Source of the DNA: a virus
Lineage: Duplodnaviria; Caudoviricetes
Length of the DNA stretch: 63,477 bases
Virus record (IMG/VR): IMGVR_UViG_3300009528_000014
Span: 1 to 63,477 of that record
Strand: one strand, 5' to 3'
The notes under the pieces were generated by a model. That model saw nothing but the letters and a program-made list of their open reading frames with translations. It ran no database searches and was not told the origin of the DNA. The translations under genes and the position numbers were made by a program. Below, piece by piece: positions 1 to 53,368 of this stretch (positions are counted from its first letter, which is position 1; every line of letters starts with the position of its first letter).

Positions 1-532
1 CAAAATATAAAATTATAGGTTGTTTACCTTCATGCGCAGCCAATTCAAATCTAACTTTAGCCGAATTAAGAAATGTCAATGATGGATAACCTTTACATGG
101 ATTAAGAGCAACATCCCATTTGTTACAGGTTTCTTCAAATACACCTTGTTGTGCTTTTTTTTCAATAAATACTTCTGGATAATACGGTTGATTATCCCAT
201 CTATTTTTATGATAACTTGTAGCCCAATTTTTTATTTGTTGTTTTGCTATCCCAGATTCAGTTTCTACATCAGTTTCTCCATAAGCCGTACTCCCAATCG
301 TTTCTCTTTCGTGGTCAACAATAGCCTCAAATTCAAGTAACCCTTCCCACCTCGCCCATATCATTGCATTAACCACTTTTTTATAATGAGGCATATCGTT
401 TGTCATTCCCATTGCTACTAATTCATAATAGATTTCACGAATAGTTATATTACCCTCATAACCTTTAGTAACGGGAATTCCATTTTCAATAATCCATTGT
501 TTTGTAAATCTTGATTTAATGTTTTCTTTCAT
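1..532 (-). CDS. Topo VI-A/Spo11-like Toprim protein, N-terminal part (runs off the window start)
   Basis: Hand translation from ATG 532: MKENIKSRF...TIREIYYELV...RWDNQPYYPEVFIEKKA...KGYPSLTF...PIILYFG, with no stop before base 1. It has a WHD-type YY motif and a Toprim E-K motif. Not in the ORF track. Confidence 0.75.
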   Translation of the reverse strand, partial: MKENIKSRFTKQWIIENGIPVTKGYEGNITIREIYYELVAMGMTNDMPHYKKVVNAMIWARWEGLLEFEAIVDHERETIGSTAYGETDVETESGIAKQQIKNWATSYHKNRWDNQPYYPEVFIEKKAQQGVFEETCNKWDVALNPCKGYPSLTFLNSAKVRFELAAHEGKQPIILYF

Positions 533-18656: not shown

Positions 18657-18657
18657 T

Positions 18658-21287: not shown

Positions 21288-21298
21288 TCCCTCTCCTG

Positions 21299-37214: not shown

Positions 37215-37913
37215 CTATCTCCACTTCGCGGGATGGGTCAGGTATTCGCCACCCCATGGGAATGTAGTATCATATTCCCTTATAACCAATGCCGCCGAGG
37301 TTTCATCACGCTTCTCCATAGCTTTATCGTAAAGTGTAAATTGCTCTTTTGCCACTGCTCTGCAAATATCCGATTTCGCCCTGTACTCCACAACATCCGC
37401 GGCGATAGTCGGAGCGGAGGATTGTGTGTATTTGTTCGCCATTGCAAGCAATGTAATAGCCGCCGCCAGATGGCAGAGTGCCTGGAAGTCCGCTTCGTAG
37501 GTCGTGTTATTATCAGCATCCAGTGTATGGGGTAAAGCATAAGCAACGATGAATGTTTCCGATGAGGATGGGCTGTCCTCAGTGAATCTGATTTTTTCGG
37601 TCGTGCCATTATGATATAGTCTGAAAAGCTCCTCGTCCATCATCTGCGGTTCCTGATCGCCCGAGGGGTATTCAACGGATTCTATTTTTGAGAAACCGTC
37701 AATCCAGTCCGAGGGCTTGTCATAATCATAAGTACCATCACCGGTATAAGATTTGTATTTAATATAAGGACGGTCTTTGTCATAGATTAGTTCAACCGCA
37801 TCGGTCAGCATTGCCTTCAGTTCTGTTTCCGTTGCCTCATCCACAATGATATGGGCATCATCCTGAAGGATTATTTTAATTTGAGCTACAAAGTCTTCCT
37901 GAACTTTTGCCAT
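37215..37913 (-). CDS. Head-tail adaptor-like protein
   Basis: Synteny; helical N- and C-termini. Confidence 0.55.
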   Translation of the reverse strand: MAKVQEDFVAQIKIILQDDAHIIVDEATETELKAMLTDAVELIYDKDRPYIKYKSYTGDGTYDYDKPSDWIDGFSKIESVEYPSGDQEPQMMDEELFRLYHNGTTEKIRFTEDSPSSSETFIVAYALPHTLDADNNTTYEADFQALCHLAAAITLLAMANKYTQSSAPTIAADVVEYRAKSDICRAVAKEQFTLYDKAMEKRDETSAALVIREYDTTFPWGGEYLTHPAKWR

Positions 37914-39832
37914 TAGTCATTTCCTTCATAATTAATTGTAAAGTATGTCATTGAACTACCTTGAACAACATATTGGTCTGTACCTGCTAAATGATGACCA
38001 ATAACCCAAACCTTATCGTCCGCCGACAAAGAAATTAAATCTGTGACCATAGCACAAATAGGTGCAGCTTTCCCAGTCTGTACACATTTATAAGTTACAG
38101 GTGTCCCATTGACGACTAATCCAACATCATAAGTTGTATCCTTTACGCCAGGGACAAAATTTATTTTTGCTCTCACAGAATAAATCCCTGTTTTCGGAGC
38201 ATAGTAAATTGAACTGGATGTGTGGTGTAGAAAATTAGAACCTTTATCAAAAGTTTCCGTTTCAAAAGTTATGATTGTCGTGGTAGTGCTTTCTATGACT
38301 TGGCTGCTTCCTGATTTGTATGCTCTTGCTGCGTAGGTATTTTTTGAATCCACATGACCATCTGAATCAGAATCATAATCAGTAGTTTTAACGATTGTCC
38401 GTTCTGTTCCGCCACTCTGTGAAGTTTCCTTAAATTTAAGTGTATCCCCAACACCATACAAAAGCAAAGAATTGGAAGTAGCTGAGGGAACAGTTCCCGT
38501 TGACAAATGAAGTTGCCCAGCAACTGAAGTCGTGCTTATTATACATAAACCCCCATCTATGCCAATGCAATCAGAAGTATTCTGATATATTTTCATAGTA
38601 CCCACATAAACTGAACCACTTGAAGTATGGATATCGTGAAGATATAAATCTCCTTCTGCTGTCATTGTGGCTTTTCCTACCCCAAACCATTTAAATACTA
38701 AACTTCCTGTTCCAGTATCTATATTAAAATTAGTCTTATCGTGATGAAAACTTCCCCATTCATTTGTAAGAGAATCCCAGTCTGTTGCAGAGAAAAAATA
38801 AATTCTGGGATTAATTGAAGCGGGTAGACCGTGAGTCTTTGCCCTGTTATCTTTTGTTGTAAATATTATATTCCCTGAATGGTCTGAGCTATTAACATCT
38901 GTAAAAAACACCAATGAATGATTCGTATTATAAATATCCCATCTCCAACCAGAATCCTCGTCATTACCGACAAAGTTAGATATAGTGTCTGGGTAATTCA
39001 CTCTTTCATAAAAATAAACTCTGCCATCGTGGTATGTGGGACCATCAATTTCTTGTTTTCCACATATCATTAAGTCGTTGGGGCTTGCCAAACCATGATT
39101 TGAAGTGCAAGTACTCCCTATTCTCAAATAAGAACCGATGCCTCTGAAGTAAGGGATGTTGGGAGATGTAAGAGAAACACCTATTTCTATCCCATCGTCT
39201 GATTCGCCATCTGGGTATATTTCAATCGATTGTGAACTTGTTACTGTATCAACATCGACTTCGGGGACTGTTAGCTTTCCTGTCATTGTGTCGCCTGCTT
39301 TTTCAACCAATGACCCAGTGGACTGTTGTAAATTATAGATATCAGTATCATTACTTTCAATATTGGTTTTATTAGTTCCTGTCGCCTGACCTATATTATA
39401 ATCAACTGTGACTAATGCTCCCGTCGACTGCCCAATGTTATATACGTCTGTTACCAGACTTCCTGTTGCTTGTCCAATATTGTAATCGGAGGTAACTAAT
39501 TCGCCTGTCGATTGCTGAAGGTTATAAATATCCGTATCGTTAGAATCGACTCGTCCTTTTAGCGTTCCAGTCGCAGATGCTACGTCTGCTTTAATAGCAA
39601 ATGTGGTTGTCGATATTGATGCGATAGAATCAAAATTACTGAACTTCTCCTTTGTTAAATATCCGTCCTGCGTAGCCGTTGCGGATGGCATGCTCACTGT
39701 GAATGTCTGAGCATTAATTACTATCGGTGCATCGGCTGACATCGTCCTTCCGAATCCGCCTCCGAAACCGCTTTGTGAATATACATTCATCGGAAGCATT
39801 ATCAAGAAAAGTAATATTATTATTTTTTTCAT
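37913..39832 (-). CDS. Head-fibre-like protein: signal peptide, 14-aa coiled-coil repeats, C1q-like C-terminal domain (likely start 39832)
   Basis: MKKIIILLFLIMLPMNVYSQ; repeats DYNIGQATG and DIYNLQQSTG; ITFETETFDKGSNF...YAPKTGIY. Confidence 0.65.
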   Translation of the reverse strand: MKKIIILLFLIMLPMNVYSQSGFGGGFGRTMSADAPIVINAQTFTVSMPSATATQDGYLTKEKFSNFDSIASISTTTFAIKADVASATGTLKGRVDSNDTDIYNLQQSTGELVTSDYNIGQATGSLVTDVYNIGQSTGALVTVDYNIGQATGTNKTNIESNDTDIYNLQQSTGSLVEKAGDTMTGKLTVPEVDVDTVTSSQSIEIYPDGESDDGIEIGVSLTSPNIPYFRGIGSYLRIGSTCTSNHGLASPNDLMICGKQEIDGPTYHDGRVYFYERVNYPDTISNFVGNDEDSGWRWDIYNTNHSLVFFTDVNSSDHSGNIIFTTKDNRAKTHGLPASINPRIYFFSATDWDSLTNEWGSFHHDKTNFNIDTGTGSLVFKWFGVGKATMTAEGDLYLHDIHTSSGSVYVGTMKIYQNTSDCIGIDGGLCIISTTSVAGQLHLSTGTVPSATSNSLLLYGVGDTLKFKETSQSGGTERTIVKTTDYDSDSDGHVDSKNTYAARAYKSGSSQVIESTTTTIITFETETFDKGSNFLHHTSSSIYYAPKTGIYSVRAKINFVPGVKDTTYDVGLVVNGTPVTYKCVQTGKAAPICAMVTDLISLSADDKVWVIGHHLAGTDQYVVQGSSMTYFTINYEGND

Positions 39833-39861
39833 CCCATGTTCTCCTTTTCCTTTATTATATA

Positions 39862-40500
39862 TTACCATGCCCAGAGTTTATACGCTTCACCACCAACTGC
39901 CCCTTTTAACCATATAACAGGCGATCTTAATCCTGCAAATGAGGTCCATTCCCCTGCCTCCAAATCCCCCTTATTGGTTGTACCATCAAAAGAGAAATTA
40001 ATCTGTGTGGCAGCCTTATTTACAATCCTGAAATTGTTTGCATCGATATTAAGATCTATCATCTGAAAAGCTGTCGTTAATACTAAATCTGCCTGTGTTC
40101 TATAAATAAGATTTTTTGAGCCTACGGTAATGTATTTTTTACCAATCATGCGATACCTCCTTTATTTCCTTAGCGTTTTGATTTGAAAGGTGAACGACGG
40201 GTTTGTCCCGGCAATGACATAGCTTAGCCGAACATATTTGCCGAACTCTGTTATCGACTCGGGGTAGTTCCCAGCTTTTATTATCTGCCTCAGGTCAGTA
40301 TGGTCGTGCCATGTGGAGTTATCGTAGGATACCTGTACCGTAATATCAAGGGTCGGATTCACACCAGAGACTGCCGTAACATTCACCAGGACAAGGCACT
40401 CCGAGGCATCCCCGAAATCATAACTGTTTGTCTGACCGCTTGAGGACCTTGCCGCTAAAGTTATAATCGGCTGTGGAATTGTTAATTTTGGATTGTACAT
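39862..40500 (-). CDS. Two small beta-rich head-decoration-like proteins (39862-40149, 40162-40500)
   Basis: Directly downstream of the capsid gene; NVTAVSG..PTLDITVQVS.D pattern. Confidence 0.5.
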
Positions 40501-40614
40501 TTCTTATTCCTCCTCGTTCGTTTTATCTTTCAACCCCATATGGTCTGCGTTACAGTCCATGCGGGGTTGGGCGGTGTCACCACCGCCACAACCCTTATTT
40601 CTTTAGTCCCTAAA

Positions 40615-42969
40615 TTAGGAACCTGCTACTGTGTTTCTGTAGAAACCCCTGAAGTCCAGTAGAACTACCAGCCAGATATGCCTTATCTTGTAGATTATCT
40701 GGTCGTTCGTAAACATCGAACCTACATTCGGCATATCCTGCACAAACAACTCCGGCTCCTCTTTGCCCTGATAGAAACCCACACCAAACATCGGTACCTT
40801 TTTGGGGTCAGCACCAACCATCCAGTTGTTGGTATCTGTCCAGTTCGGTATCACTATCGTCTCAAGACCATAGGTTGAGTGAATGTTAGGCGTTGTTGCG
40901 GTTTCGAGCGCGGAAACCGCCACAGCGGAATGGGTCAGCTTGTAGGCAGGATCTTCCAACTCATTAGGCACCATGATGTATTTTGGCTTATTTGCCATTC
41001 CGAGAGTTCTTGCAGTATTCCCATAAGCTGTTTGACTCATCATCGCTGTCTTCGCGGCAGTTAAACCAGCATCAGACAAAGCGACTGCCCCGAGGTTGCT
41101 GTGGTTGATATGGAACAAAACCACCCCATCGTAAGTCGTAGCAACATTAGCAGTTAATGTTCCAAACACCGCATCGTAGAGGGTCTGTGCAGCCGAAAGA
41201 CCGAGCGCCGGTGGGATTTTCTTGATTAGCCTAACATCGTCGTTTGCTAATGTTTCAAGAGTTATACTTTCAGTCCCACCTCTCTTTGCCAAAGCCGCCG
41301 TATTCTCATCGTCACCCGGTGAGGTCAGTGGATCATAAGGGCCTGACTGTGCAACCACCGGTAGATTGGTGTATCCGCCGAACAGGGTGAATCGCTGAGT
41401 CCTGAAATCGTTGATCGGCAGAATTTCGGAAACAATTTTCCTCCAGTCGTTAAGCTCGGGTGTCTTGTAGTCCATTATCATCCTTCTGGTAACGGAGTCG
41501 CCCAGTATCTGTGCGAAAGTCGTTGTGGTTATTGCTTCCGCTAATCTACCGTTCGATTTCTTGGTATAACCAAAACACGCTGCAAGCATATCGCTGGCGT
41601 CACAAACAGGATCGCCTGTAATTACCCTATATGCTTCCTTGAAGGTCTTGAACCGGGGTACCGTTGGCTTTCCCTCACTGGGAGCACGGTCCCAACCATC
41701 GAAAAAGCCATCCATGGCCAGTTGATGATTGTCCCTCTCCTCCTGTCCAAGTTCAATCGTAGCACCGGGAAGCACCATCTTGCTTTCAGTGAGTTTCCCC
41801 ATGATGTCGTCCTGTTCCTTGATAGCCTTGTCAATATCCTCAACCTTGAAGATTCTATCGACGAACCTTTTCCTGATGGACTCCTTCATGGGTTCGGGAA
41901 GTTTGGACTCTAAGAGCTTCTCCTTAAGGATTACACCGCAGTTTCTCTCCTGAGTTTCCTCCTCAATTTTCTTGATGTTGTCCAGTGACGCTTTAGACTC
42001 CTTAACTCTTGCTTCAGCTTCCTTGGTTTCCTTCTCCTTCTTTTCCCTTTCTTTCTTTTCCCTCGCTTCTTTCTGCTCTTTCGTTTCATCCCCAGCTCCG
42101 TACTTTTCACCATAGCCCTTTATTTTCTTCAGGAGCTTTATGGCGTCAGCTTTCTTGTCGCCTTCGACAAAAGCGATGATTTTATCAATCATCTGGCTGA
42201 GTGCCTCCTGGGCTTTCTCACCGAAAGTTTCCTTAAAAACCTCTTCCTTAAAGTCCTCAATGGAAGCCTCGAGTACCGAGTACTCCTGGTCTTCCGTGAG
42301 TTTAGCGGGGTCAAGCCCCTCAACTATATCGGGAGAGGTTTTCTTCAACATCTCTACCAATCTTTTAAATAGATCCTTCATTTCCGTTCCTCCTTGATAG
42401 CTCGCTACGAGCCTTTGAAATTTCCCGCCTGCTGCGGGAGTCGTGACAACTGTTATCTCGTCAATCACTCCAATCTTATCAACTTTTATACGACCATCGG
42501 CAAGTTGATGCTCCACACCGCCGCCGTCTAAGGAAAGACCAAGAAGATTTTTCTTGCCATGCTCCCACGCATCCCTGAGCATTTTTCTCAACCACTTTGC
42601 CGACTCAAGAATATGGAGCTTCCCAAGTACTCCCTCCTTCATCTTTCCACTGCCGTCTTTAAACTCTCCGTACCTGACGTCCGTGAAGAACCCGACGAGG
42701 TTCTTCGTAAAACTTTTCTTAAAGGAATCCCTGACCGCATCCGGCAGATGGTTATAAAACCTGCTACCGAACTCGTAAGCAAAGCACTTGGCACTCTCAA
42801 AGAGACCTAACGCATCTTTCAGAACGTCCTCGGAATAGTCCTTCTTGTTCAGGCTCTCGCCCTTCTCAACAATGACCACATCCCAGTCTTTGCCTTCCTT
42901 ATCCAGCGATTCCTTCAACGTGCATTTGACAATATCATCTCGATATTGCCGTTTATTCAAAATTTTCAT
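40615..42969 (-). CDS. Prohead protease-scaffold-major capsid fusion (Mu gpT-like)
   Basis: N-terminal NH...VG...GLS...VTTPAAGG; charged scaffold; TTTFAQILGD...DFR...ETLANDD...LFHINHSNL. Confidence 0.88.
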   Translation of the reverse strand: MKILNKRQYRDDIVKCTLKESLDKEGKDWDVVIVEKGESLNKKDYSEDVLKDALGLFESAKCFAYEFGSRFYNHLPDAVRDSFKKSFTKNLVGFFTDVRYGEFKDGSGKMKEGVLGKLHILESAKWLRKMLRDAWEHGKKNLLGLSLDGGGVEHQLADGRIKVDKIGVIDEITVVTTPAAGGKFQRLVASYQGGTEMKDLFKRLVEMLKKTSPDIVEGLDPAKLTEDQEYSVLEASIEDFKEEVFKETFGEKAQEALSQMIDKIIAFVEGDKKADAIKLLKKIKGYGEKYGAGDETKEQKEAREKKEREKKEKETKEAEARVKESKASLDNIKKIEEETQERNCGVILKEKLLESKLPEPMKESIRKRFVDRIFKVEDIDKAIKEQDDIMGKLTESKMVLPGATIELGQEERDNHQLAMDGFFDGWDRAPSEGKPTVPRFKTFKEAYRVITGDPVCDASDMLAACFGYTKKSNGRLAEAITTTTFAQILGDSVTRRMIMDYKTPELNDWRKIVSEILPINDFRTQRFTLFGGYTNLPVVAQSGPYDPLTSPGDDENTAALAKRGGTESITLETLANDDVRLIKKIPPALGLSAAQTLYDAVFGTLTANVATTYDGVVLFHINHSNLGAVALSDAGLTAAKTAMMSQTAYGNTARTLGMANKPKYIMVPNELEDPAYKLTHSAVAVSALETATTPNIHSTYGLETIVIPNWTDTNNWMVGADPKKVPMFGVGFYQGKEEPELFVQDMPNVGSMFTNDQIIYKIRHIWLVVLLDFRGFYRNTVAGS

Positions 42970-42971
42970 AG

Positions 42972-45900
42972 TTAGCTCCCCTTCGTCTTGGGCAGTACGC
43001 CTTTCTTAAATACCGCTATCTCAGCACCCGGGCTTACTCGTTTCATTATCCAATATCCCTTTAACTCCTTACCCTCGAACTTAAACGATGCGAACTCTTC
43101 TGTGTCCTCAATCCAGTTGACTGTTCCTGAGTCTATTATCTCCATGAATGCCGGCAGAACCTTATTCGGGTTGCCCTGCTCCTCCCCACGTTCTTGGATG
43201 TCCCTGTAAATGTTGTTCCGGGGGTCGAGCCATACCCGATCGCCTGTCTTAAATAACTTCGCAAGGGTCGGCTTTGTTTCGAGCTTTTCACCCTTGTCAT
43301 CCTCTACTATAAAGTTATCGTCTACTTTTGAAATTATTTTTACTTTTTTATATGTCCAGTCAACGGATTCGCCCTTCTTCGGGGCGATTGAACCTTCCCA
43401 TGTCATCCACTCTTTGAACGACTTTCCCGACGGTGTGGGGCAGTCGCATTTTTTCCTTGTGGCTGTAGTTACCTCAACTACCAAAGGATTTTTTTCTATA
43501 TTCCATTCATCGATAAAATCTTTGCCTGTATCAATTAATAAGTCATAGTGCTCAACAGGCACGCCTCTCACTACAATGGGTCCCCGCCACCAGTGTCTGC
43601 GTAATAAATATCTTCCCACCGCTTCCTTTAATTTCCTTGCTTTTATTTCTTCCCTATCTACAAGGTCGTTAAATGCCTCATCCATCATCTTTATTTTTTC
43701 ACCCCTGCTTAGTTTCTTTTCCCACCACCTCAATTCAGGCTTGACTTTCTTTTCCCATTCCGGGGGAAGCCCAGACTCCCCATCGGGCGGGGCGTAATCC
43801 TTCTTCTGTCTCCCCCGTTTTGATAATAGATAGGGCTGCTGATCCTCGAGGTTTGTCCAGCACTGCCATATCATTTTCTCTTTTGGTATCTTCTCCCATT
43901 CCTTGCCCACGGGGATAAGGCGCTCAACCATTCGTCCCTTGAAGTGCTTCATGTCAAGGAAGAACTCTTTGAAAAATGGCTTCATCACTCCCGGATACGC
44001 CATGCCATCATCCATTGTGATAAATACCCCAGGCTCAAATTTCGTCGCCCCGACTGATTCAGGCTCAAGGACGACCTCGCGGACATTCAACCATTCCAAC
44101 GGTTGTTTCTCCTTTTGAACCATGACTACCTTTTTATTCGGGTCCATGTCGGGAGTGAACTTTCCTTTCTCCAATAAAACCTTATTCCATTTCCTGCCCT
44201 TTTCAAGAGTATCTACTTCCTCGGTTATCTGATCTTTGTGGGCGTTCATTAAAGTCTCACCCTCTAAAAATCCATTCTGCTTTCTTCTGAAGTCAGCATG
44301 AACAGAGCGCCCGCGAAAATGATTGAGCATAACTGCATAGTTCTTGGGATAATCCTTCGGGTTCTTCTTAAACAGTTCCTTCAGTTCCACAGGAATCTCA
44401 ATGGGCGGGGGTGGCACATTACGAGCGACCTTCAACAGGAACAGAGTCTCTTCCGGGCTGAGTCCTTGCGATTCTGTCATTGACACGAACTCCTCGGTAG
44501 ACATAAAGTCTATATCTTCGTATCTTACAACCGACTCATAAATTATCCCCCCATCTTCCATCACGTGTTTTATCTGAAGAACTCGTTCCTTCCGTGCCTT
44601 CTCCACAACATCCTCGACTTTATCGGGCTGAGTCGGAACTTTCATCTCAACGTTCTCGAGAGGTATGAATCTCGGAGCCCATGCCGATACGGAATAAGTA
44701 TCAGTCTTTTTATCATGGATATAGTTGAACGTCTCGAACTCTATCGCTATGATGTCACCTCTCTCTTTCTTCTTGTCCGTGCTAAAGCTCTTTCCGGTTT
44801 CGAGCCAGTTCTTACCTTTGACCTCTGTGAGGTCTCCGGGCTTGACTGGAAGCCTTCCCGGGTCCAGTCCGTAACGGTAATTGAACGTGGTTGGAACTTT
44901 GGTCGGGATTCTCTCAAGGACTATCCCGAACAGGACGGCGTTGTTATGAAACTTAATCCACGCATCCCGGGCGTTACCGTCAAGGTAATATCTGTCCTCG
45001 CTCTTTTTTAAAACGTTGCCTTCCGAAGCGACAAGCTTTCTGACTTTTTCTGTATGCTCCCGCAGTTCTTTTTTATTAGTTGATGTGAGATTAGGAACGA
45101 GGTTAAGCCTGAATTTCATATTCGGCTTTTCCCATGTCGATTGTTTTATTCCTAATTCTTTTAAAGTCTTCTGTCTTACAAGTTCATCCTCTTTGTGCAG
45201 TGCCTTACCCTCGTAGTAAAGGCAGGTGAATAGATTGGAAATCATCTGGCTATCATCTGGCGGGGTCTTTGCGTGCACATACCCTGCTGAAGCTTCTCTC
45301 GGCTGATGCCTACCTTGAATCCAACGCTCGAGTTCCGCTCCAGCTATAAATGATTTTTTTACCTCCTTTATTTCTTCAACCGTTTTTGGTAATCTTTCAG
45401 TTATGATTTCACCATCTTCGGAGAATATCATAACCTTGCCTTTTCCATCCGAATGAATTTCTATCGCCATACCGTCATATTTTTTTGAATTAAAAACGGG
45501 GTAATCATCTTCATCGATAAGATTCAAAAAACTATCTATGGTCATTCTCTGGTTCGGCTTCGCACCCTTGGTCGGCTTCTGCATAAGGAAGAATCTGAAC
45601 AGTTTAATATCATCCTCATCCGCCGACTGCTTCGCCTGTTTCCTGAGCTCGGGCCCGGCTGCCCTTGGGACCTGCTCCTCAATACTCTGATAAAATCTTT
45701 TCTTAAATCCTTCGTCATCGACTTCGTGAACAGATGTCTCCTTCTTCGGGACAAGGACGAGGTCGTATAATCCCATCCACCGCCAATTCGGGCCCGTGGC
45801 TTCTGCGATAAGATGTGCCGGTTCGCCATATATATCCTGCGATATTCTTTCAAGCTTCATCACGAGGGAGGTCGGAAGTTCCTTTGACCTCACAACCCAG

Positions 45901-47903
45901 TCGGCATCCTCGGGCTTACGTTTTTCCGCGAACATCTTCGAGCCGGTCTGTGTCACAAAGTTCTCAATCCACAGGACCGGTCCGACTTCCTGAATCTTCT
46001 TCATTATCTTCTGGGCCCGCCTGTCAATCTTCTCGCTTTCGGTCAGATCGGACTTCACTATTTTATCAAGCTCATTGACTTTAAAGTTTATGCTCCTCTT
46101 TGTAAGTTCCGAAATCATCAGGGCATCCGCATTTATTACAAGCTCATCGTTCTTTCTACTGCCCCTGCCAACCCATAGATCAAATAACTTATCGTGCATT
46201 TTGATTAACTGTTCCTCGCTTGCTTTCATGTATATCTGGGGAGTCCATTCGTCGGGCTTGAAGTCTATTTGTTCATAAAGATGGACTTTCCTTAACAGGA
46301 AATTTGATATTAGTAATTCTTTCCTTGATACATCAATCCATGGATGTTCTCCGATTTTGTTACCTGCCTTTATGGTCATAAAATTGAAACCTGAAAATTC
46401 TGATTTTATTTTCTCATTATCTGGTAATGATAGAATAAATAATCCCGAATATTTTTTCAGTGCTGATGATAATTCCGATATGTCAATCTGTTTATCTTCA
46501 AAATTAGATGAGTCGGGATAGGGCGGATCGAGATAGGCAAAAGATTCTTTCGAATCATATTTGCTTAGAATATCTTTATAATCTTTTGAGTATATCTCTG
46601 CACTTCTTAATCTCTCTTTTAGTTTTGGTAAGTTTTCAATTCCCTTCCATTCTTGATTTATTCTTAATGGATTGGCTTTATCACCACGACTGGAAAATGA
46701 ACCCCAACGAGTAAAAATAAATTTATGAAATTTTTCTTCCATTGTCTGGGGATTGCTTGCTTTAACTTTTTCAAAAGAATCTTTTGTTAATTTCCAATCC
46801 ATATTTTTTAATGCCTCCACGTCGGATTGGTTTGAATTTTTTATAAACTTATATGCAGAAATTATCCCCGAATCAATATCATTTATAACTTCAATTTTAC
46901 TCGGTTTCTTTGAGAAGAAAACAGCTCCCCCGCCCACAAAGGGCTCGACGTAAATTTTATGTTCGGGAATAAAAGACACAATTTGTTTAGATAAAAATTT
47001 TTCCCCTCCCGGTGACCCGAACGCAGGACGGATACCTTCTTTGAAGTTTCCCTCGTCCGCATTCCAGATATTCGGGTTTGTGTTATCCTTAAAATTCTTG
47101 CTCGCTTCGCTCTCCTTTATTTCTTTAACGGAATTGACCTCGCCCTTCCCGTCCCCCTCAAAAGCCCATGTCTTAAAACAGTCCTCGCAGAAAAACGCGT
47201 GAGCCATGCCCTCAGCCCATAAGACCTCATACACCGGGGGCTTTGAACATTCCATGCACTGGTCTCTTCTATGCCTCGCCTCGGCTATACGTTTCAGTTT
47301 GGTATCAAAGAAAATCTGGACATCCTTTGGGACACTCACGGGTACTGGTTCCTTGAAGCCGATGAAATCTTTTATTGGGTAAAAGAAAAACGACTCCTTA
47401 TTCTTCCACCAGCTTATTCGTTCCTGCTCGCTTATTTGGTGTTTATTTAAAAGTTTCTCAAATTCATCAAGTCCGATTTCCTTCGGCGAGTTAAGTCTTA
47501 TAAACCCGTAAGCCTTCTTGCCGGAAGTCAGTAAGTAGAAGTTCCCCGTTATGAATTTCTTTAGCTTAATAATCCCTTTCTTCGTGCCCTCGGCAACCAG
47601 TTGACCGTGGGGCAGTGTAAGGTAAAGTCCTTTATCTACTATTCGTCTGAAGCCCTCAAGGTAAAGCTCTCTTGGAGTTTCCTTCCACTTGTTTGAATGG
47701 AATTTTATCTTTCCGCGCCTTATCATTTCGGACAGGTTCTTAACCAGAGCGTCAAGGATTTGTTTTTTAGTATGCACGAACTCGCCCTTCTCTTTGAGCG
47801 TAGTCCACCAAGCTCCCAAAATCCTCCAGTCGTCGGCTAACTGCATATCCGTTGACTTCGTGGGGTCAAAGGTTTTAATGTCTTTTATTTCTTTTAATCT
47901 CAT
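42972..47903 (-). CDS. Polyvalent protein: ASCH-like, Zn finger, N6-adenine DNA MTase, NTase-like, ATP-dependent DNA ligase, two LigD-like phosphoesterases
   Basis: EPFVGGGAV and LDPPY (46518-46529); GS..DAD; KYDG (45471-45482), EGNVLK, WIKF; HFRGRSVHADFR; HWWRG..EHYDLLI..DSGT..FEGKELKGYW. Confidence 0.8.
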   Translation of the reverse strand: MRLKEIKDIKTFDPTKSTDMQLADDWRILGAWWTTLKEKGEFVHTKKQILDALVKNLSEMIRRGKIKFHSNKWKETPRELYLEGFRRIVDKGLYLTLPHGQLVAEGTKKGIIKLKKFITGNFYLLTSGKKAYGFIRLNSPKEIGLDEFEKLLNKHQISEQERISWWKNKESFFFYPIKDFIGFKEPVPVSVPKDVQIFFDTKLKRIAEARHRRDQCMECSKPPVYEVLWAEGMAHAFFCEDCFKTWAFEGDGKGEVNSVKEIKESEASKNFKDNTNPNIWNADEGNFKEGIRPAFGSPGGEKFLSKQIVSFIPEHKIYVEPFVGGGAVFFSKKPSKIEVINDIDSGIISAYKFIKNSNQSDVEALKNMDWKLTKDSFEKVKASNPQTMEEKFHKFIFTRWGSFSSRGDKANPLRINQEWKGIENLPKLKERLRSAEIYSKDYKDILSKYDSKESFAYLDPPYPDSSNFEDKQIDISELSSALKKYSGLFILSLPDNEKIKSEFSGFNFMTIKAGNKIGEHPWIDVSRKELLISNFLLRKVHLYEQIDFKPDEWTPQIYMKASEEQLIKMHDKLFDLWVGRGSRKNDELVINADALMISELTKRSINFKVNELDKIVKSDLTESEKIDRRAQKIMKKIQEVGPVLWIENFVTQTGSKMFAEKRKPEDADWVVRSKELPTSLVMKLERISQDIYGEPAHLIAEATGPNWRWMGLYDLVLVPKKETSVHEVDDEGFKKRFYQSIEEQVPRAAGPELRKQAKQSADEDDIKLFRFFLMQKPTKGAKPNQRMTIDSFLNLIDEDDYPVFNSKKYDGMAIEIHSDGKGKVMIFSEDGEIITERLPKTVEEIKEVKKSFIAGAELERWIQGRHQPREASAGYVHAKTPPDDSQMISNLFTCLYYEGKALHKEDELVRQKTLKELGIKQSTWEKPNMKFRLNLVPNLTSTNKKELREHTEKVRKLVASEGNVLKKSEDRYYLDGNARDAWIKFHNNAVLFGIVLERIPTKVPTTFNYRYGLDPGRLPVKPGDLTEVKGKNWLETGKSFSTDKKKERGDIIAIEFETFNYIHDKKTDTYSVSAWAPRFIPLENVEMKVPTQPDKVEDVVEKARKERVLQIKHVMEDGGIIYESVVRYEDIDFMSTEEFVSMTESQGLSPEETLFLLKVARNVPPPPIEIPVELKELFKKNPKDYPKNYAVMLNHFRGRSVHADFRRKQNGFLEGETLMNAHKDQITEEVDTLEKGRKWNKVLLEKGKFTPDMDPNKKVVMVQKEKQPLEWLNVREVVLEPESVGATKFEPGVFITMDDGMAYPGVMKPFFKEFFLDMKHFKGRMVERLIPVGKEWEKIPKEKMIWQCWTNLEDQQPYLLSKRGRQKKDYAPPDGESGLPPEWEKKVKPELRWWEKKLSRGEKIKMMDEAFNDLVDREEIKARKLKEAVGRYLLRRHWWRGPIVVRGVPVEHYDLLIDTGKDFIDEWNIEKNPLVVEVTTATRKKCDCPTPSGKSFKEWMTWEGSIAPKKGESVDWTYKKVKIISKVDDNFIVEDDKGEKLETKPTLAKLFKTGDRVWLDPRNNIYRDIQERGEEQGNPNKVLPAFMEIIDSGTVNWIEDTEEFASFKFEGKELKGYWIMKRVSPGAEIAVFKKGVLPKTKGS

Positions 47904-48129
47904 CTTCTCTCATACCTCAACTTTTTTGCAAGTGGTGGTCTCAAACTTAAAACAATTATATTATCGTCAATATATTTGACCTTCTCTACATACTTCCGCT
48001 TGATCTTATGGAAGTCGCAGGCTTCCTGTATTATGTCCTTACCCATCCGGGGAATGGCTTCGTCAATCCTTTCCGTCCCCTGATCAAATAACGGCTTGAT
48101 TCTTTTTAGGTCTGCCCTCGGTTTTATTC

Positions 48130-48945
48130 TCATTCTAACTCCTCAAGATAAGGACCATGCGTACAATTACAGTTTGCGACCTCCTCAACTGGCAACCTCG
48201 GGTCTTTCGGCTCCATGGCTTTGTGCCCACCCACAATAAAAAAATCCTTTACATCAACAACTTGTCCATTTGCTGCAGCATGGGACGGTCTCGGATTAAT
48301 CCCTGTAAACCACTGCTTCTTCAATCCCGGCACTCGCTCTTTCGCCTGCTCCATCCTCAGTTGTGTAGCGATAGATTGTGCCCTTCCTATTTCAGTCCGG
48401 GCTATCCTCATCGCCCTTCCGGTCACACCCTTCCTCTTCGCTATGCCCAGAACAGAATCGACTTCCTTCGCCGCCTGGTATACGTTCTTTTCGCCAGCGA
48501 CCGCCAGGGATACGACACTGTTTATGCGTGTCCTCATGCCCTGAGTGATCCCAGTTATAAGGTCGGCCGAAAAACCTTGTAAAGTTATGAGTTGGGTTTC
48601 TGTCAAAAGAGGCATCGCCGCACTGACCTCCGCAGCAGCCAGTGGATTATCAATCATCTGAACCCCCATCTCCCATGCTCCTGCCTGATTGCCTGTCACC
48701 ATTGCGTTCATCCTTGTCTCGAACCTCCCGATGACTCTTGTTATCTCGTCCCTTATGCCCCGTAAATGCTCCGCCTTAAAGCCCTCGGCTCCTATCATCG
48801 CGGTTCTTATGTCCCGCCTGAGCTCCCGCATAAACCGGACTGTCTCGTTCGCGGAGCGTCTGTCAAGTATCGTAAGCCGTCCCCTCGTCCGCTCAATCTC
48901 CCGTGTCATCCTCCGGCGCCTCGCTGCCAGGCTTACCATCCTCAT
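48130..48945 (-). CDS. MuF/SPP1 gp7-like head morphogenesis protein
   Basis: RAMRIARTE...KKQW...RPSH...NGQ...P.DP...NCNC. Confidence 0.9.
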   Translation of the reverse strand: MRMVSLAARRRRMTREIERTRGRLTILDRRSANETVRFMRELRRDIRTAMIGAEGFKAEHLRGIRDEITRVIGRFETRMNAMVTGNQAGAWEMGVQMIDNPLAAAEVSAAMPLLTETQLITLQGFSADLITGITQGMRTRINSVVSLAVAGEKNVYQAAKEVDSVLGIAKRKGVTGRAMRIARTEIGRAQSIATQLRMEQAKERVPGLKKQWFTGINPRPSHAAANGQVVDVKDFFIVGGHKAMEPKDPRLPVEEVANCNCTHGPYLEELE

Positions 48946-50359
48946 CCTCCATCTTCTTCTTTAATTCGTCCTGCTTTTCTTTTGAGTAGTCCTTATCCGT
49001 TCTCTCCCCGGATACGTCAAGTTCAAACCCGGTCTGACCCGCCACGTGGGCAAAGAACTCCCTCGCCTGTTTATCCGTGACCCAGTCGTTATCAAGTGCC
49101 ACCTGTAAGGAAGTTGCGATCTGGGTCATGGCTGTTGCTATCTGCGAGAAGTCACGCTCAGCCAGGGGCTGCATGTGAATTGTGAATTTCCTGTTGAGCG
49201 GCTTTTCTTTTGTGTCTTTTAGAGTACCGTGAATAATCGCCTGGTCAATCACAAAGTTGAATATGAATTTAAGGATATATTTGAAGTAAAACTGACGGGA
49301 TTTGAAATGTTTATAAGAAGGACCTCCCATCTCCATCGCTGTCGCACGGGTTGTTTTCTCGCCCTCCCCTATCCAGTGAGGTGGTATACCATAACCCGAG
49401 GCAATGTGATTTTTAATGAGCCTTGCATGAGTGCTCATGTCAGATGATTCGAGCTTAGGTGTTTCGGCTTTCCACTCTATGTTCTCATTGTGATACCTAA
49501 TAGACCCGGGCTTAGGGACTTTGAGCCCGTGTTTCTTCACCCATTCCCTAATCCTTTTATCGCTCCATCCCTTGAACGTTACATCCCAAATGAAGACCGA
49601 AAGTAATTTTGCCCTCTCGGCTATGTTGAATAAAAACCGCTCATGAACATCTATCCAGTCCGCCAGGGGCAGCAGATCCGACCTCCCCCGGGTGCCGTTT
49701 GATACCCTGTTCACTGAGAAAAAGAATATCTCCCCGACCAGTCTTCCGTAAGTCTTGGAGTTCATGTCCCGGTCAAAGTCGATTATTCTGAATAAGTCCT
49801 TCTGGGCTCCCGGATGATCTTTAGAACCAGTGACGGGTTTAAGGGATTGGTTAGTCCTGACTGCCATTAACTGCATGGGGTTCATTGGATTCCTCGTGAC
49901 TTCCTTCACGAAGGTGGGATCGATATAACCCAGCTTTACGGCACCGGTATAGTTGTTTACCCACACTGGGTAGAACTGTTCCCCGAAAAGCGAGAGTTCG
50001 GTCGCCTTCATGTACTGTGACATTTCCCAGTTGTTTATGGGGTCATACCAGAACTCGTCAAGGACAGTCTTGACATCCTTATCCTCAGCTTCGTACTTTA
50101 TCCCCTCGCCGATAACGAAGTCCTTGTGCATCTCTATGAGTCTCTTGCCCATCGGCGTAGCTTCGTATAAGTGCATGACTATGTCCTGCATACGTCTCTG
50201 GGTCAGGGGCAACAGGTCCCGGGCTTTCTGGGTATCGGTCAGGGGTCTATATAAGTAATCATCTTTATCTATCTGCCCCATCTCCGGGATATTGGAAAAC
50301 TCCATCAACCTGCTCATTACGCTGCCCACGACTTTCTTCACGGATTCTTTTATTTTCAT
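48893..50359 (-). CDS. Portal protein
   Basis: Between terminase and MuF; LFGEQF, RGRSDL, SGYGIPPHWIG. Confidence 0.88.
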   Translation of the reverse strand: MKIKESVKKVVGSVMSRLMEFSNIPEMGQIDKDDYLYRPLTDTQKARDLLPLTQRRMQDIVMHLYEATPMGKRLIEMHKDFVIGEGIKYEAEDKDVKTVLDEFWYDPINNWEMSQYMKATELSLFGEQFYPVWVNNYTGAVKLGYIDPTFVKEVTRNPMNPMQLMAVRTNQSLKPVTGSKDHPGAQKDLFRIIDFDRDMNSKTYGRLVGEIFFFSVNRVSNGTRGRSDLLPLADWIDVHERFLFNIAERAKLLSVFIWDVTFKGWSDKRIREWVKKHGLKVPKPGSIRYHNENIEWKAETPKLESSDMSTHARLIKNHIASGYGIPPHWIGEGEKTTRATAMEMGGPSYKHFKSRQFYFKYILKFIFNFVIDQAIIHGTLKDTKEKPLNRKFTIHMQPLAERDFSQIATAMTQIATSLQVALDNDWVTDKQAREFFAHVAGQTGFELDVSGERTDKDYSKEKQDELKKKMEDEDGKPGSEAPEDDTGD

Positions 50360-50368
50360 TTTAAACTC

Positions 50369-52102
50369 CTAAAATATTAATCCCCGCCTTCCGCCCTCGG
50401 GAACATCTTCTCTGGAACTACTATCCTCCCCGACCTCGATCAGGGTCACATCCCCACCCTCTGACTGTATGTCGTTTATTGCGTGCGACACCGCGCCTGC
50501 CACTGCATCGGAAATATCCTTGCTCCCTTTGGCTGGTTTTTCGATTTTCTTGCCATTCAACAGATCCAACCCTTTAAGTTCCCTGTCCAGGACTCTATTG
50601 GGATAGGTCCTGATAATCTCCCGGTAAAGCCCTTCAATCTTAAAGGCGTCATATTGACTTTTCTGGACCGACATGAACTCGACATTCACTCCTCTTTTCG
50701 TGATATACTGCGCGAGTGATGCCGCAATGTAAGAGTCGAACGAGACCTTATTCATATTAGGGAATCTGTCCAGGATGAGTCCAATCAGGACCTTGAGTTC
50801 CTCAAAGTCTATCTCGCTATTGCCCTTGGCAACGACTCCGTAGGCAAGCGGGACACTGATTATTCCACCCTTCTTACCGGCAATCGCCATGCCGAACGAG
50901 CAGTTATTTACGGCTGGGTCGAGATGCATGAAGTAATTGACATCCTCCTCGCCATGGAACGAGTCCTTGAGCGTGCCCTCATCACTAAACGGGTTGACGA
51001 GCCCGGCTTTCCTGCCCGCGACAAACATCTTCTTGATCTTGAGCCTGTCCCGGATATATTTCTCAATAGCCTTGGCCGGCTGGCAGCCGAAGTCCCGCCA
51101 GAAGTCCTCCGGGGACTTCTTCAGCTCGTTCTGCAGGTACTGGCAATCAAACGGCAGGTTCGGGTTGATTTCCCAGGTAGCAAGCCAGAAGCCCAGCATA
51201 CTCGGGATCTCCTTACTCAGGTCGAAAAGCTCGCATATCATGTCCTCCTCATGGATGACTGAGGACAAAGACGCTATCCTCGCGTCGTCCCGGAAGGGCG
51301 CCGTCGACCGGGTCAGTGAGGTATAAACCGTCTTGCCCGAGCTCCGGCCGGTCTTCTTCTCGGTGAACCGCGCCAGTTCGTCAAACAATACAAGCTTCGC
51401 TGTCCTCCCCACAATCGAGGCCGAGTTGGAATGACCCGAGAGCATCTTCGTGTGCGTGTGCGGAAATTCGAAGGTGTACTGCCCCGACTTGAAATCCCTC
51501 TGCGAGTAAAACTTCGAGTTCTTTATCCGCGCCTCGGTCGAGGCAAAGACCGTATCCTTCGCCTGCTCCTTGTCCGTGGCCACGTTGATGATGTAGATCT
51601 CCTTCCCCTTCGGCAGGCCATAGTGTGCCTGGGGATCGCCCAGAAGATAAAGCTTCCACTCCTCCACACAGGACATCGCCGAGATAAGCTCGGTCTTACC
51701 CCCCTTCATCCCGCACTTCAGCACAAGCTCGCTATACTTCTGCCCCGGCTTCCATGTGGTCTTCCCCTCCGCGACAAGCCTGTCCATCATCCCTCGCTCG
51801 GCCTCATCAAAGGGCAGACCATAAAATGCTTTAATGATTAACCTCTGCATCGGGAACATCGGAAAGCCCAGCCCCTCCGCACTCTCAATGAACTCCACCT
51901 CGCTCATCCCCCGACAAAGCCCCTTCGGCTCTTCCTTGAGGCCTATCTGCTTATAGTACGCCACTGTCCGCTTTGAGAGTTTGAACCTCTCGGCAGCCTC
52001 CTGCTCCGTGCGACCCATACGGCAGTACTGCTGAACCTCGGCGATCAGCTTCTCGCGGTTCACTCGGTACTGTGTTTTCCTCTTAGTTTCCATAATTTGC
52101 AC
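50369..52102 (-). CDS. terL: Terminase large subunit with N-terminal HTH
   Basis: CGMKGGKT, VLFDELA, HLDPA, KDISDAVAG. Confidence 0.9.
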   Translation of the reverse strand: MQIMETKRKTQYRVNREKLIAEVQQYCRMGRTEQEAAERFKLSKRTVAYYKQIGLKEEPKGLCRGMSEVEFIESAEGLGFPMFPMQRLIIKAFYGLPFDEAERGMMDRLVAEGKTTWKPGQKYSELVLKCGMKGGKTELISAMSCVEEWKLYLLGDPQAHYGLPKGKEIYIINVATDKEQAKDTVFASTEARIKNSKFYSQRDFKSGQYTFEFPHTHTKMLSGHSNSASIVGRTAKLVLFDELARFTEKKTGRSSGKTVYTSLTRSTAPFRDDARIASLSSVIHEEDMICELFDLSKEIPSMLGFWLATWEINPNLPFDCQYLQNELKKSPEDFWRDFGCQPAKAIEKYIRDRLKIKKMFVAGRKAGLVNPFSDEGTLKDSFHGEEDVNYFMHLDPAVNNCSFGMAIAGKKGGIISVPLAYGVVAKGNSEIDFEELKVLIGLILDRFPNMNKVSFDSYIAASLAQYITKRGVNVEFMSVQKSQYDAFKIEGLYREIIRTYPNRVLDRELKGLDLLNGKKIEKPAKGSKDISDAVAGAVSHAINDIQSEGGDVTLIEVGEDSSSREDVPEGGRRGLIF

Positions 52103-52612
52103 TCTCGCCTATTTAACCGTTAGGGATTAACTGCATTTTCGATATAGGGGGTGCGACATGCGTTTTGGGAATATTTTTTTCCTAACTTTTGATTTCAAAT
52201 CCTCGTCGACAAACTCCTGAAACCGTCATTATCTCCCGCCTTGGAACGTCATTCCATTTCCTGTCGACGATAAAGTTTACAAAGTATACACTGCGTCTTA
52301 TAACGTTGATTATGTTGTCATCTCTTTTTTGCCCTTATTAATAACATTATTAATAAAATAAATATTCGTTAACTAAATTAAAAATTTCCCTCCACCCCTC
52401 TTTAGAATATAATAAAGTACATAACGTAGTAAGCAAGTAAGGGCTTTATTAAATATATTATTAACATTACTTTGGTAACTATAAGAACAATTTAAAAAAA
52501 ATAATAAGCAAGTATAATTACTACCTACATAAGAACCTTCGTAATGAATTATTAAAGACTTTAATGTCAATCCGTTATTGTCGTTACAAAACATTTTTTA
52601 GATGACTCCGGT

Positions 52613-53368
52613 TCAGGCTATGATTAATAAAAAAATAAAGACTATCGAAAGGCGGGGGGAGAGGATGGTCTTCAGGGTCCGCAGGGCTTGTTTGAAGAGC
52701 TGGCATATCCTTGACTCGCAGACACCCACGTTCCTCCCGGTTTCCTTTAGGGAGAAACCCTCGAGCCCATGGAGCCTCACTATCCTCGCCGTCCTTTCCG
52801 GGAGCTGCTCTATCGCCCTTTGGAGTAGACCCGCCCTTTCATTCTCCACGGCCTTTACAAAGCCTCCTTCCTCCTGCCCTCTTATGTGGGGGATATGCTT
52901 TGCTGTCTGCGCAGGGCCCAGGACTCGCTCCGGGAAGTGCTCTGAGAGCTTATACGCTATGTCCATGAGCTTTAGTCTCTTCCTCCCTTTTTCCTTCCCT
53001 TCCCCCAGAAGCTTCAGTTCCTCCTTCAGGTACCTGCTTATCTGGTCAAAGTCCCTCAGGCCATCAAGGACCGCCCCCCTTATCCTCGCGCAGGCAAAGG
53101 TCGGGAACTTGAAGCCCTTTCCGGGGTCATACCTCTCTATCGCCTGGAGGAGCCCTATAAGCCCCCATCCCCTCAGGTCCGCGGGTTCCATGAGCCTGTT
53201 GGCCCTCAGGTGCCACATCTTGTGCCTTGATATGGTAAAGTTGATCAGGGGCGTATACATGCCCAGTAGGGCGTCCCTATGCCTCATCTCGCCCTTTTCC
53301 TTGTACCTCTGCCACAGCTGGGCCTCTGATAGGGGCTTGCGCCCTCTTTTCTTTTCAGGCTGGCTCAT
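52613..53368 (-). CDS. FliA/WhiG-like (sigma-28 family) sigma factor
   Basis: GLIGLLQAIERYDP.KG.KF.TFA..RIRGAVLDGLR; region 4 LPER...SLKETG...ESRICQL. Confidence 0.92.
   Translation of the reverse strand: MSQPEKKRGRKPLSEAQLWQRYKEKGEMRHRDALLGMYTPLINFTISRHKMWHLRANRLMEPADLRGWGLIGLLQAIERYDPGKGFKFPTFACARIRGAVLDGLRDFDQISRYLKEELKLLGEGKEKGRKRLKLMDIAYKLSEHFPERVLGPAQTAKHIPHIRGQEEGGFVKAVENERAGLLQRAIEQLPERTARIVRLHGLEGFSLKETGRNVGVCESRICQLFKQALRTLKTILSPRLSIVFIFLLIIA

Follow-up and report, generated by a model that had tools for sequence, protein, structure and literature searches.

A phage head-operon protein predicted to join a DNA ligase and LigD-like 3'-phosphoesterase domains to an adenine methylase

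Several described systems bear on the subject of this report, a single 1643-codon open reading frame (ORF) in the head-gene operon of a tailed-phage contig (IMG/VR record IMGVR_UViG_3300009528_000014; the whole stretch of 63,477 bases that was analysed is called the window). One is LigD, the enzyme of Ku-dependent non-homologous end joining, in which one polypeptide holds an ATP-dependent ligase and a 3'-phosphoesterase (PE). The LigD-PE fold also exists as stand-alone archaeal proteins of 118-169 residues (PDB 3p43, 3p4h, 5dmp). Another is DarB of phage P1, a very large virion protein whose methyltransferase domain protects incoming DNA from restriction. DarB combines a methylase with a helicase, has neither ligase nor phosphoesterase, and its packaging has been demonstrated experimentally. 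Phage polyvalent proteins, in turn, are described as combining many domains, methylases included, with linkage to MuF and other head genes and with domain turnover (Iyer et al., 2017; PMC5512222). MuF-linked and polyvalent cargo of this kind is described as packaged in heads (PMC5512222, PMC9503650). Finally, genome circularisation in the mycobacteriophages Omega and Corndog is reported to proceed through the LigD of the host (PMC12848934, citing Pitcher et al., 2006).

How does the giant ORF of the window compare? Judged from its predicted domains, its product works like LigD in pairing an ATP-dependent ligase with a PE of the same fold on one polypeptide, yet it is not LigD. The first of its PE-type domains (PE1) matches P. 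aeruginosa LigD-PE (3n9b/3n9d) at Z 12.6-12.7 and retains the metal-binding His-His-Asp and the Arg. However, the phosphate-contacting His and Tyr have given way to Gln and Trp, the ligase comes before the PE, and there are two PE-type domains, the second (PE2) degenerate. The giant protein also differs from LigD in having no archaeo-eukaryotic primase-type polymerase domain in Pfam scans and in being fused to a methylase and other modules within a phage head operon. No Ku was found in the window, which represents about 54% of the genome, at E<=1. The reading preferred here, to which we give about an even chance of being right, is that the protein is packaged in the phage head, is ejected with the genome, and repairs and methylates incoming phage DNA.

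The ORF itself is secure. It runs for 4932 nucleotides (nt) on the minus strand without interruption, and upstream of its ATG the frame stays open for just two more codons. A plus-strand reading of the same interval was rejected, having stops throughout. The ORF is far above chance because it has 20 long relatives (32-52% identity) and its C-terminal 643 residues match 816 sequence clusters. An earlier note on this DNA, made from the letters alone, had described an uninterrupted frame of this length without naming a strand, and all of the motifs that it quoted have been located in the translation: LYLTLPHGQLVAEGTKK at residue 93, CMEC at 216, CEDC at 239, G654-S655...D666-A-D668, KYDG at 808, EGNVLK at 961, WIKF at 982, HADFR at 1202, HYDL at 1452, DSGT at 1591 and GKELKG at 1611. 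Further motifs are F-V-G-G-G at 322 and DPPY at 459. The modules to which they belong are listed in Table 1.

The ligase is the part of the core most readily recognised by Pfam. PF01068 matches residues 806-985 (2.1e-12; 47.6 bits against a cut-off of 26.2), and key residues of motifs I, III, IV and V are in place (K808 in KYDG, E859, E961-G962...K966 and K984). Across 92 relatives the motif residues are preserved in 78-92 sequences, with K808 in 90, D810 in 89, G811 in 91, E961 in 91, G962 in 92, K966 in 86 and K984 in 87. Passage of the Pfam cut-off and the near-constancy of K808 bear out the ATP-dependent ligase that had been proposed from the motifs. A profile of the family's ligase domains has 37 PDB matches; 35 are DNA-ligase sequences and none is an RNA ligase. 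The best are archaeal ligases, Lig1, Lig3 and Lig4, down to 1e-19, whereas the ligase domain of M. tuberculosis LigD (1vs0) is matched at 2e-8. In this respect too the protein differs from LigD, its ligase being nearer to the archaeal/Lig1 type.

The evidence for the phosphoesterase comes from structure prediction and profiles. Neither Pfam nor PHROGs has a match in the C-terminal third of the giant protein. Residues 1166-1643 were modelled with AlphaFold from an alignment of 36 sequences, with a pLDDT of 90.8. When this model is compared with the PDB by Foldseek, the seven best matches are all LigD-PE (probability 1.00, E 4e-6 to 4e-5). VIA gives Z 15.3 for residues 1187-1353 against 3p43, with a root-mean-square deviation of 2.2 and 123 of 124 residues aligned; 3p4h (15.1), 3n9d (12.7) and 5dmp (12.7) follow, and the next unrelated matches lie near Z 8. 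In the model, PE1 has the eight-stranded beta-barrel of the PE fold, enlarged by a helical insert (about 60 residues) and by a helical extension at the C-terminus. Profile A3, made from the same alignment, finds just five PDB sequences at E<=10 and all are LigD-PE. The stand-alone archaeal enzymes are the best matches (E 1e-9, for 3p43, and 7.8e-8), and PE1 differs from them in its insert and extension and in lying inside a 1643-residue protein.

The catalytic residues agree with the fold. H1202-x-D1204-x-R1206 of PE1 aligns with H-Y-D-F-R of 3p43, 3p4h and 5dmp, and H1195 is one position off the first metal-binding His of LigD-PE. In P. aeruginosa numbering the LigD-PE metal-binding His-His-Asp and the Arg are presumably H42, H48, D50 and R52. 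Among 121 relatives, H1195 is present in 118, H1202 in 120, D1204 in all 121 and R1206 in 119. PE1 also has invariant residues of its own beyond the LigD-PE set, namely K1264, W1271 (near-invariant), E1313 and R1328. On the strength of the model, PE1 is a divergent LigD-PE.

What of the second domain? Profile A3 reaches PE2 with a domain E value of 4.4e-5 for 3p43, and also matches it to 3p4h and, across the domain, to 3n9b/2lj6. PE2 contains a small OB-like insert, which VIA aligns with the OB domain of a proteasomal ATPase, EF-P and IF1 at Z 7.2-8.4 and which is missing from several relatives (alignment A2). The protein probably has one active phosphoesterase rather than two, with PE1 catalytic and the degenerate PE2 acting as a binding module. 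Two LigD-PE-like domains had been proposed from the motifs. For PE1 this stands, with both the fold and the His-His-Asp-Arg set, whereas PE2 is matched by profile only and is without most of the catalytic residues.

The third activity predicted for the protein is methylation. The D12-class methylase match (PF02086, residues 299-512) has an E value of 3.5e-20 and 73.2 bits against a cut-off of 22. It is joined by phrog_56 (2.9e-41) and by DpnM and Dam in the PDB (2e-7 to 3e-6), and both the S-adenosylmethionine (SAM)-binding FxGxG and the catalytic DPPY are intact, so the adenine methylase of the earlier note is upheld. The 4-mer counts of the window are relevant here. With 74 sites where 260 +/- 15 are expected (observed/expected 0.30), GATC ranks third among avoided 4-mers, behind CTAG and GGCC. 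The four lowest of the 256 4-mers are CTAG (0.06, four sites), GGCC (0.23), GATC (0.30) and GCGC (0.51). Palindrome avoidance shows restriction pressure. The avoidance of GATC is compatible with a predicted specificity of the methylase for GATC.

The remaining N-terminal and middle modules are smaller. A profile of module B (A6, 13 copies) matches PDB 1wk2/2dp9 (TTHA0113) over the full length at E 6.5e-5, a structure that we take to have the ASCH fold. Pfam ASCH (PF04266) matches three of the 13 copies (best E 1.3e-4), with no match for the window's own copy, and the ESM Atlas gives an ASCH lead with a score of 0.77. The proposed ASCH-like domain is supported by the profile match and by the three Pfam-matched relatives. 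The adjoining CxxC..CxxC finger is conserved, with CxxC...Cxx[C/H] preserved in seven of seven aligned copies. For module E, fold searches returned unspecific helical matches only (Z about 6); a wide VIA search with a model of residues 540-800 likewise gave unspecific helical matches to model residues 1-88 (Z <=6.6), and these were set aside. Module F has the Pol-beta-type signature hG[GS]-x9-13-Dh[DE]h. Of 30 relatives aligned and read by eye, 29 show G-[GS]...D-x-[DE]; conservation reaches 90% or more at G654 and D666, and the modelled topology, beta-alpha-beta-alpha-beta-beta, fits such a core. Of the Pol-beta-like assignment made earlier, the conserved GS..DxD motif holds and the fold match is weak. 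Word-index searches, which covered near lengths only, found no stand-alone versions of residues 540-800 or 1-205 at such lengths. A Pfam scan of five separate segments at E<=10 brought up none of the LigD_N, ASCH and nucleotidyltransferase families.

The relatives argue that the ligase and PE belong together. With residues 1001-1643 as the query, exhaustive HMMER searching detected 816 clusters (50% identity) at E<=1e-3 and 184 at E<=1e-30; by these matches, the C-terminal module defines a large metagenomic family unmodelled by Pfam and PHROGs. Modules were mapped in 166 proteins, of which 146 had been retrieved with the C-terminal query, so that the counts favour PE: PE1 in 157, PE2 in 137, the ligase in 102, the post-ligase region in 78, the ASCH-like module and module A in 43 each, the methylase in 29, the nucleotidyltransferase-like module in 25 and the finger in six. 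Ligase and PE modules occur together in 102 of the 166. BLASTP among the relatives shows modules in varied orders and combinations. At the C-terminus of one relative (P0019) is a prohead protease domain, Peptidase_S78_2 (2.1e-18), and in another (L018:2476-6375) a zincin-like peptidase domain replaces the ligase (26.8 bits, just under the cut-off of 27.4). Metallo-beta-lactamase-fold domains stand at the N-terminus of four (L017:5678-11272, L020:1573-6270, P0013, P0020), and P0021 has a trypsin-like domain and an extra SAM methyltransferase. We infer that ligase and PE form the constant core of the family and that other domains are swapped between relatives. In some loci (L002, L015, L021-L023) the protein is divided between a ligase gene and a PE gene; in these and in L019 the ligase part and the PE1-PE2 part are neighbouring genes, so their fusion is not obligatory.

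A pattern scan of IMG/VR gave 26 loci, the neighbours of which were judged by single-sequence phmmer with window proteins only. MuF lies directly upstream in ten (L002-L009, L014, L018) and portal, without a detected MuF, in two (L011, L012). The protease/capsid gene is directly downstream in eight (L002-L004, L006, L008, L009, L012, L018), and terminase lies a few kilobases (kb) upstream in two further loci (L021, L022). The survey of homologues that had been suggested as a check thus finds that the head-operon slot recurs (12 of 26 upstream, eight of 26 downstream) and that domain turnover is extensive. A single-protein search for related loci in viral contigs confirmed none, megablast of positions 38000-53000 against phage records found no match, and a BFVD fold search gave a single credible viral match (A0A516LT18, probability 1.00, E 1.6e-4). 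Contigs of prokaryotic genomes contributed two loci, on a 2.3-kb contig in an Aminicenantes metagenome-assembled genome (MAG) bin and a 54-kb contig of a Thermoprotei MAG, too few to name a host.

One match is of particular use for comparison. Of 50,697 phage and virus records, only ANMV-1 matches beyond the methylase; in this search no cultured phage carrying the family appeared, and the C-terminal half is covered by no PHROG. Its protein AJP62006.1 (KP703175, 3200-5800; locus L001), an 866-aa (amino acid) 'ATP-dependent DNA ligase', covers residues 766-1450 and shares the ligase, the post-ligase region and PE1. It differs in having no methylase, ASCH-like module or PE2, and in adjoining a MutT-like hydrolase gene rather than occupying the MuF/capsid slot. 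The recorded host is an uncultured archaeon. Because ANMV-1 has a ligase-PE1 protein, the ligase-PE1 core spans the divide between bacterial and archaeal viruses.

How do the other known systems compare? The giant protein fits the definition of a polyvalent protein (PMC5512222) in its many unrelated predicted domains, in the domain turnover among its relatives and in its linkage to MuF and head genes, and a relative with a zincin-like peptidase domain adds to the likeness. The difference is that the constant core is here a repair pair (ligase and PE), not a host-targeting effector. The main text of PMC5512222 contains neither 'DNA ligase' nor 'LigD', its three uses of 'ligase' are RNA ligases, and its supplements may list such architectures. 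A literature search found no description of a phage head-module ligase/LigD-PE protein, a result on which supplements, above all those of PMC5512222, may bear. Omega and Corndog share end-joining chemistry at entry as described (PMC12848934), but there host LigD is exploited, whereas here the phage encodes the ligase and PE, with no Ku in the window. The comparison with P1 is different again: the packaging of DarB is an experimental fact, and that of the giant protein is proposed from its gene context.

The gene neighbourhood is where the case for packaging begins. In the order of transcription the genes are a sigma-70 factor, terminase large subunit (TerL), portal, MuF, a 77-codon ORF, the giant ORF and a protease-like/capsid fusion. 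The ATG of the 77-codon ORF overlaps the MuF stop and its own stop overlaps the ATG of the giant ORF; its putative product is basic, and no homologue was found among 29 related loci. The ATG of the capsid fusion follows the giant-ORF stop by 2 nt. In this fusion the C-terminal half is capsid protein. Residues 1-330 resemble S78/S77 prohead proteases in the ESM Atlas only (feature score 0.92, TM 0.42-0.50), an identity left unconfirmed by Pfam, by PDB sequence search and by BLASTP against the protease-bearing relative P0019; H74, H119 and S146 are invariant across nine relatives. The giant ORF had been placed between MuF and the protease-capsid gene. The order is right, but the ORF does not touch MuF, from which the 77-codon ORF separates it, and the protease is an Atlas lead only. 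The sigma-70-family gene, directly upstream of the terminase/head block, is probably a phage late sigma factor. It is the best clue to the host, and its position upstream of terminase argues for a bacterial one.

Table 1. Positions of the head-region genes and of the modules of the giant protein in the window, in the order of transcription.
Feature	Size or residues	Positions	Strand	Evidence or remark
Sigma-70-family factor gene		52613-53368	minus	Sigma70_r2 6.6e-10, r4 1.2e-9
Terminase large subunit	577 aa	50369..52102	minus	phrog_17415, 6.3e-15
Portal protein	488 aa	48893..50359	minus	phrog_10963, 3.2e-48
MuF-like head morphogenesis protein	271 aa	48130..48945	minus	PF04233 30.0 bits against cut-off 29.6; phrog_2468 6.3e-32
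ORF between MuF and giant ORF	77 codons	47900..48133	minus	ATGA overlaps at both ends
Whole giant ORF, polyvalent head-module protein (P0001)	1643 aa	42972..47903	minus	single open frame
Module A, mobile	1-93	47625..47903	minus	in 43/166 relatives; no Pfam match
Module B, ASCH-like (PUA-like barrel)	92-200	47304..47630	minus	profile match
Module C, Cys/His zinc-finger-like (C216, C219, C239, C242)	205-281	47061..47291	minus	motif
Module D, D12-class N6-adenine DNA methyltransferase	286-545	46269..47048	minus	PF02086
Module E, helical	546-640	45984..46268	minus	fold model, pLDDT mostly >85
Module F, minimal nucleotidyltransferase-like core (G654-S655, D666, D668)	641-720	45744..45983	minus	motif and topology
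Module G, ATP-dependent DNA ligase adenylation domain	801-990	44934..45503	minus	PF01068
Post-ligase region, conserved; OB domain presumed	991-1165	44409..44933	minus	co-occurs with ligase, 78/166 relatives
Module H, PE1	1166-1420	43644..44408	minus	LigD 3'-phosphoesterase fold at 1187-1353
Module I, PE2, degenerate LigD-PE-like, with conserved C-terminal tail	1421-1643	42975..43643	minus	profile A3
PE2 insert, small OB-like beta barrel	1515-1570	43194..43361	minus	VIA; alignment A2
Fusion of protease-like N-terminal third, linker and major capsid protein	784 aa	40615..42969	minus	PF25209 5.7e-38; phrog_4523/29592

Some other genes of the window deserve mention in their own right. The minus strand carries nearly all of its long ORFs. 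One of them, downstream of the capsid gene, encodes a 651-aa protein (37913-39868, minus) with a sub-threshold C-terminal C1q-like domain (22.4 against 23.7 bits); it may decorate the head or form a head fibre. An apparent intein, with weak Intein_splicing/Hint matches, lies between the helicase halves of a UvrD-like protein (978 aa, 529-3465, minus). Another apparent intein, with Intein_splicing at 5.4e-13 and a LAGLIDADG domain, is found in a B12-binding radical SAM protein (730 aa, 16464-18656, minus). That gene belongs to a modification-type block (16464-22366, minus) of B12/radical SAM, double SAM-methyltransferase, family-2 glycosyltransferase and radical SAM/SPASM proteins, which might target DNA, a peptide or the cell surface. 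A BCS1-like AAA ATPase (3813-5018, minus; BCS1_N 4.6e-13, AAA 7.1e-13) is unusual for a phage.

How might the giant protein work? It would be expressed alongside MuF and the protease/capsid protein, become part of the procapsid, and leave the virion together with the DNA. This incorporation and ejection is suggested by three things: the slot between MuF/portal and the protease/capsid gene recurs, published MuF-linked and polyvalent cargo is described as head-packaged (PMC5512222, PMC9503650), and the relative P0019 includes a prohead protease domain. After entry into the new cell, PE1 with a divalent metal would strip 3'-phosphates, or whatever else blocks a 3' end, from nicked or broken phage DNA. 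The ligase would self-adenylate at K808 and then seal the cleaned nicks, while the methylase would modify adenines, probably in GATC, ahead of host restriction. The ASCH-like module, the finger, and PE2 with its OB insert might hold nucleic acid, and the nucleotidyltransferase-like module may add a nucleotide at gaps. Genome circularisation at entry would be a variant of the same scheme.

The nature of the damage can be narrowed down. Restriction and Cas nucleases leave 3'-OH/5'-phosphate ends, which a ligase seals directly. Since such cuts need no PE, the conserved 3'-phosphoesterase argues for blocked 3' ends. This points to abasic-site, thermal or oxidative breaks of extracellular dormancy, or to metal-independent nucleases, as the source. 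The earlier suggestion that the protein heals restriction and Cas breaks is accordingly not retained.

A more ambitious form of the proposal is that the family, uncatalogued so far among tailed-phage head proteins, is a virion-borne, Ku-independent machine for healing and sealing DNA ends that acts before phage gene expression. This is put forward tentatively, as a possibility somewhat less probable than its negation. The phage would bring a LigD-like 3'-phosphoesterase and a ligase of its own into the cell, in many cases joined by a methylase and a nucleotidyltransferase. The blocked nicks and breaks that they would repair in its genome could accrue while the particle is dormant or arise on entry, and the degenerate PE2 and its OB insert would form a DNA-end clamp in place of Ku.

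A number of observations weigh against packaging and repair at entry as the role of the protein. Some concern the catalytic domains. The Arg of ligase motif I is replaced by A813 (R in 49 of 92 relatives) and the second Lys of motif V by H986 (K in 46 and H in 39 of 92). Residues 991-1165, where an OB domain (in such ligases the site of motif VI) is presumed, have no Pfam or PDB sequence match. In PE1, by the 5dmp alignment, Q1267 aligns with the phosphate-contacting His of LigD-PE and W1271 with the Tyr of its H-P-x-x-Y, residues that we take to be H84 and Y88 with phosphate-contacting roles. Position 1267 varies among the 121 relatives (68 Q, 36 E, nine H), and W1271 is near-invariant (119 of 121). 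Pfam LigD_N (PF13298) matches nothing in the giant protein, scanned whole or in segments, or in a six-frame translation of the window, and in the relative L020 it scores 19.1 bits against a cut-off of 31.1. PE2 has Leu at the catalytic Arg position and Ser at the His position; among 21 relatives H1452 is kept in 12 and D1454 in 12, with E instead in seven. Comparison of PE1 with PE2 by hhalign, on shallow six-sequence profiles, gave a probability of 0.7%, and because of this an internal duplication is not claimed. The fold match of module F to nucleotidyltransferases is weak and within noise (Foldseek E 0.25-0.8; Z 4.8 for HI0073, 3.9 for MntA). Others concern delivery and context. A protein of about 190 kDa must unfold to traverse the tail channel. 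The contig, classed as linear, is an estimated 54% of the genome, and other ligases or repair genes may lie outside it. Finally, no MuF, portal, terminase or capsid segment is fused to any of the 166 relatives (phmmer with window proteins), and 12 of the 26 loci have no neighbouring head gene detected by single-sequence phmmer, several of them being cut by contig ends.

These last two observations are what one would expect if the protein were a late cytoplasmic enzyme of genome maturation, never packaged, acting on concatemers before or during packaging. It would then methylate progeny DNA against restriction in the next host, and clean and seal nicks for the terminase. The domain evidence applies equally well to such an enzyme, translational coupling to late genes sets the timing of expression and not the location of the product, and methylation before packaging needs no delivery and would take place in a producing cell rich in S-adenosylmethionine. 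Nevertheless, the idea is judged unlikely, if worth taking seriously. The MuF/portal slot (12 of 26) and the protease/capsid slot (eight of 26) are described as a site of packaged cargo (PMC5512222, PMC9503650), the prohead protease domain of P0019 must act inside the procapsid, and domain shuffling, with zincin-like, metallo-beta-lactamase and trypsin-like domains, fits conflict cargo better than housekeeping.

What if the substrate is RNA? Packaged or not, the ligase and PE might reseal tRNAs cut by anticodon nucleases, with the PE removing 2',3'-cyclic or 3'-phosphate ends of host or phage tRNAs. LigD-PE enzymes do act on 3'-ribonucleotide as well as 3'-phosphate ends, and ASCH domains are generally predicted to bind RNA. 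RNA repair is described as a phage counter-defence (2H domains, RNA ligases; PMC5512222). Yet the ligase profile matches DNA ligases and no RNA ligase among its 37 PDB matches, Pfam assigns the domain to DNA_ligase_A_M, the same protein holds a DNA adenine methylase, and Pfam scans of the protein show no polynucleotide kinase domain, which 5'-OH ends would need. A role in RNA repair is therefore considered improbable. Less credible still, to the point of being hardly worth entertaining, is an assembly chimera or inactive relic that has no present function. The contig is metagenomic and incomplete, and PE2 and some ligase motif positions are degenerate; against this, the frame is open for all its 4932 nt, its junctions with its neighbours overlap or are 2 nt apart, collinear relatives at 46-52% identity sit on independent contigs, and catalytic residues are conserved over 92-121 relatives.

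If the protein is indeed virion-borne, self-repair of the incoming genome would join host takeover, anti-restriction and signal degradation among the roles of ejected proteins. This would bear on phage survival during long dormancy outside the cell and in the face of nuclease-based defences, and would show LigD-type end-healing without Ku or a primase-polymerase. PE1, with conserved residues of its own, lends itself to biochemical work and to a new family model, and the compact core of ligase and 3'-phosphoesterase may be of use as a reagent that seals damaged DNA. Repair enzymes are packaged by some large eukaryotic DNA viruses. Should the end-healing proposal hold, the family would be the bacteriophage counterpart of these enzymes.

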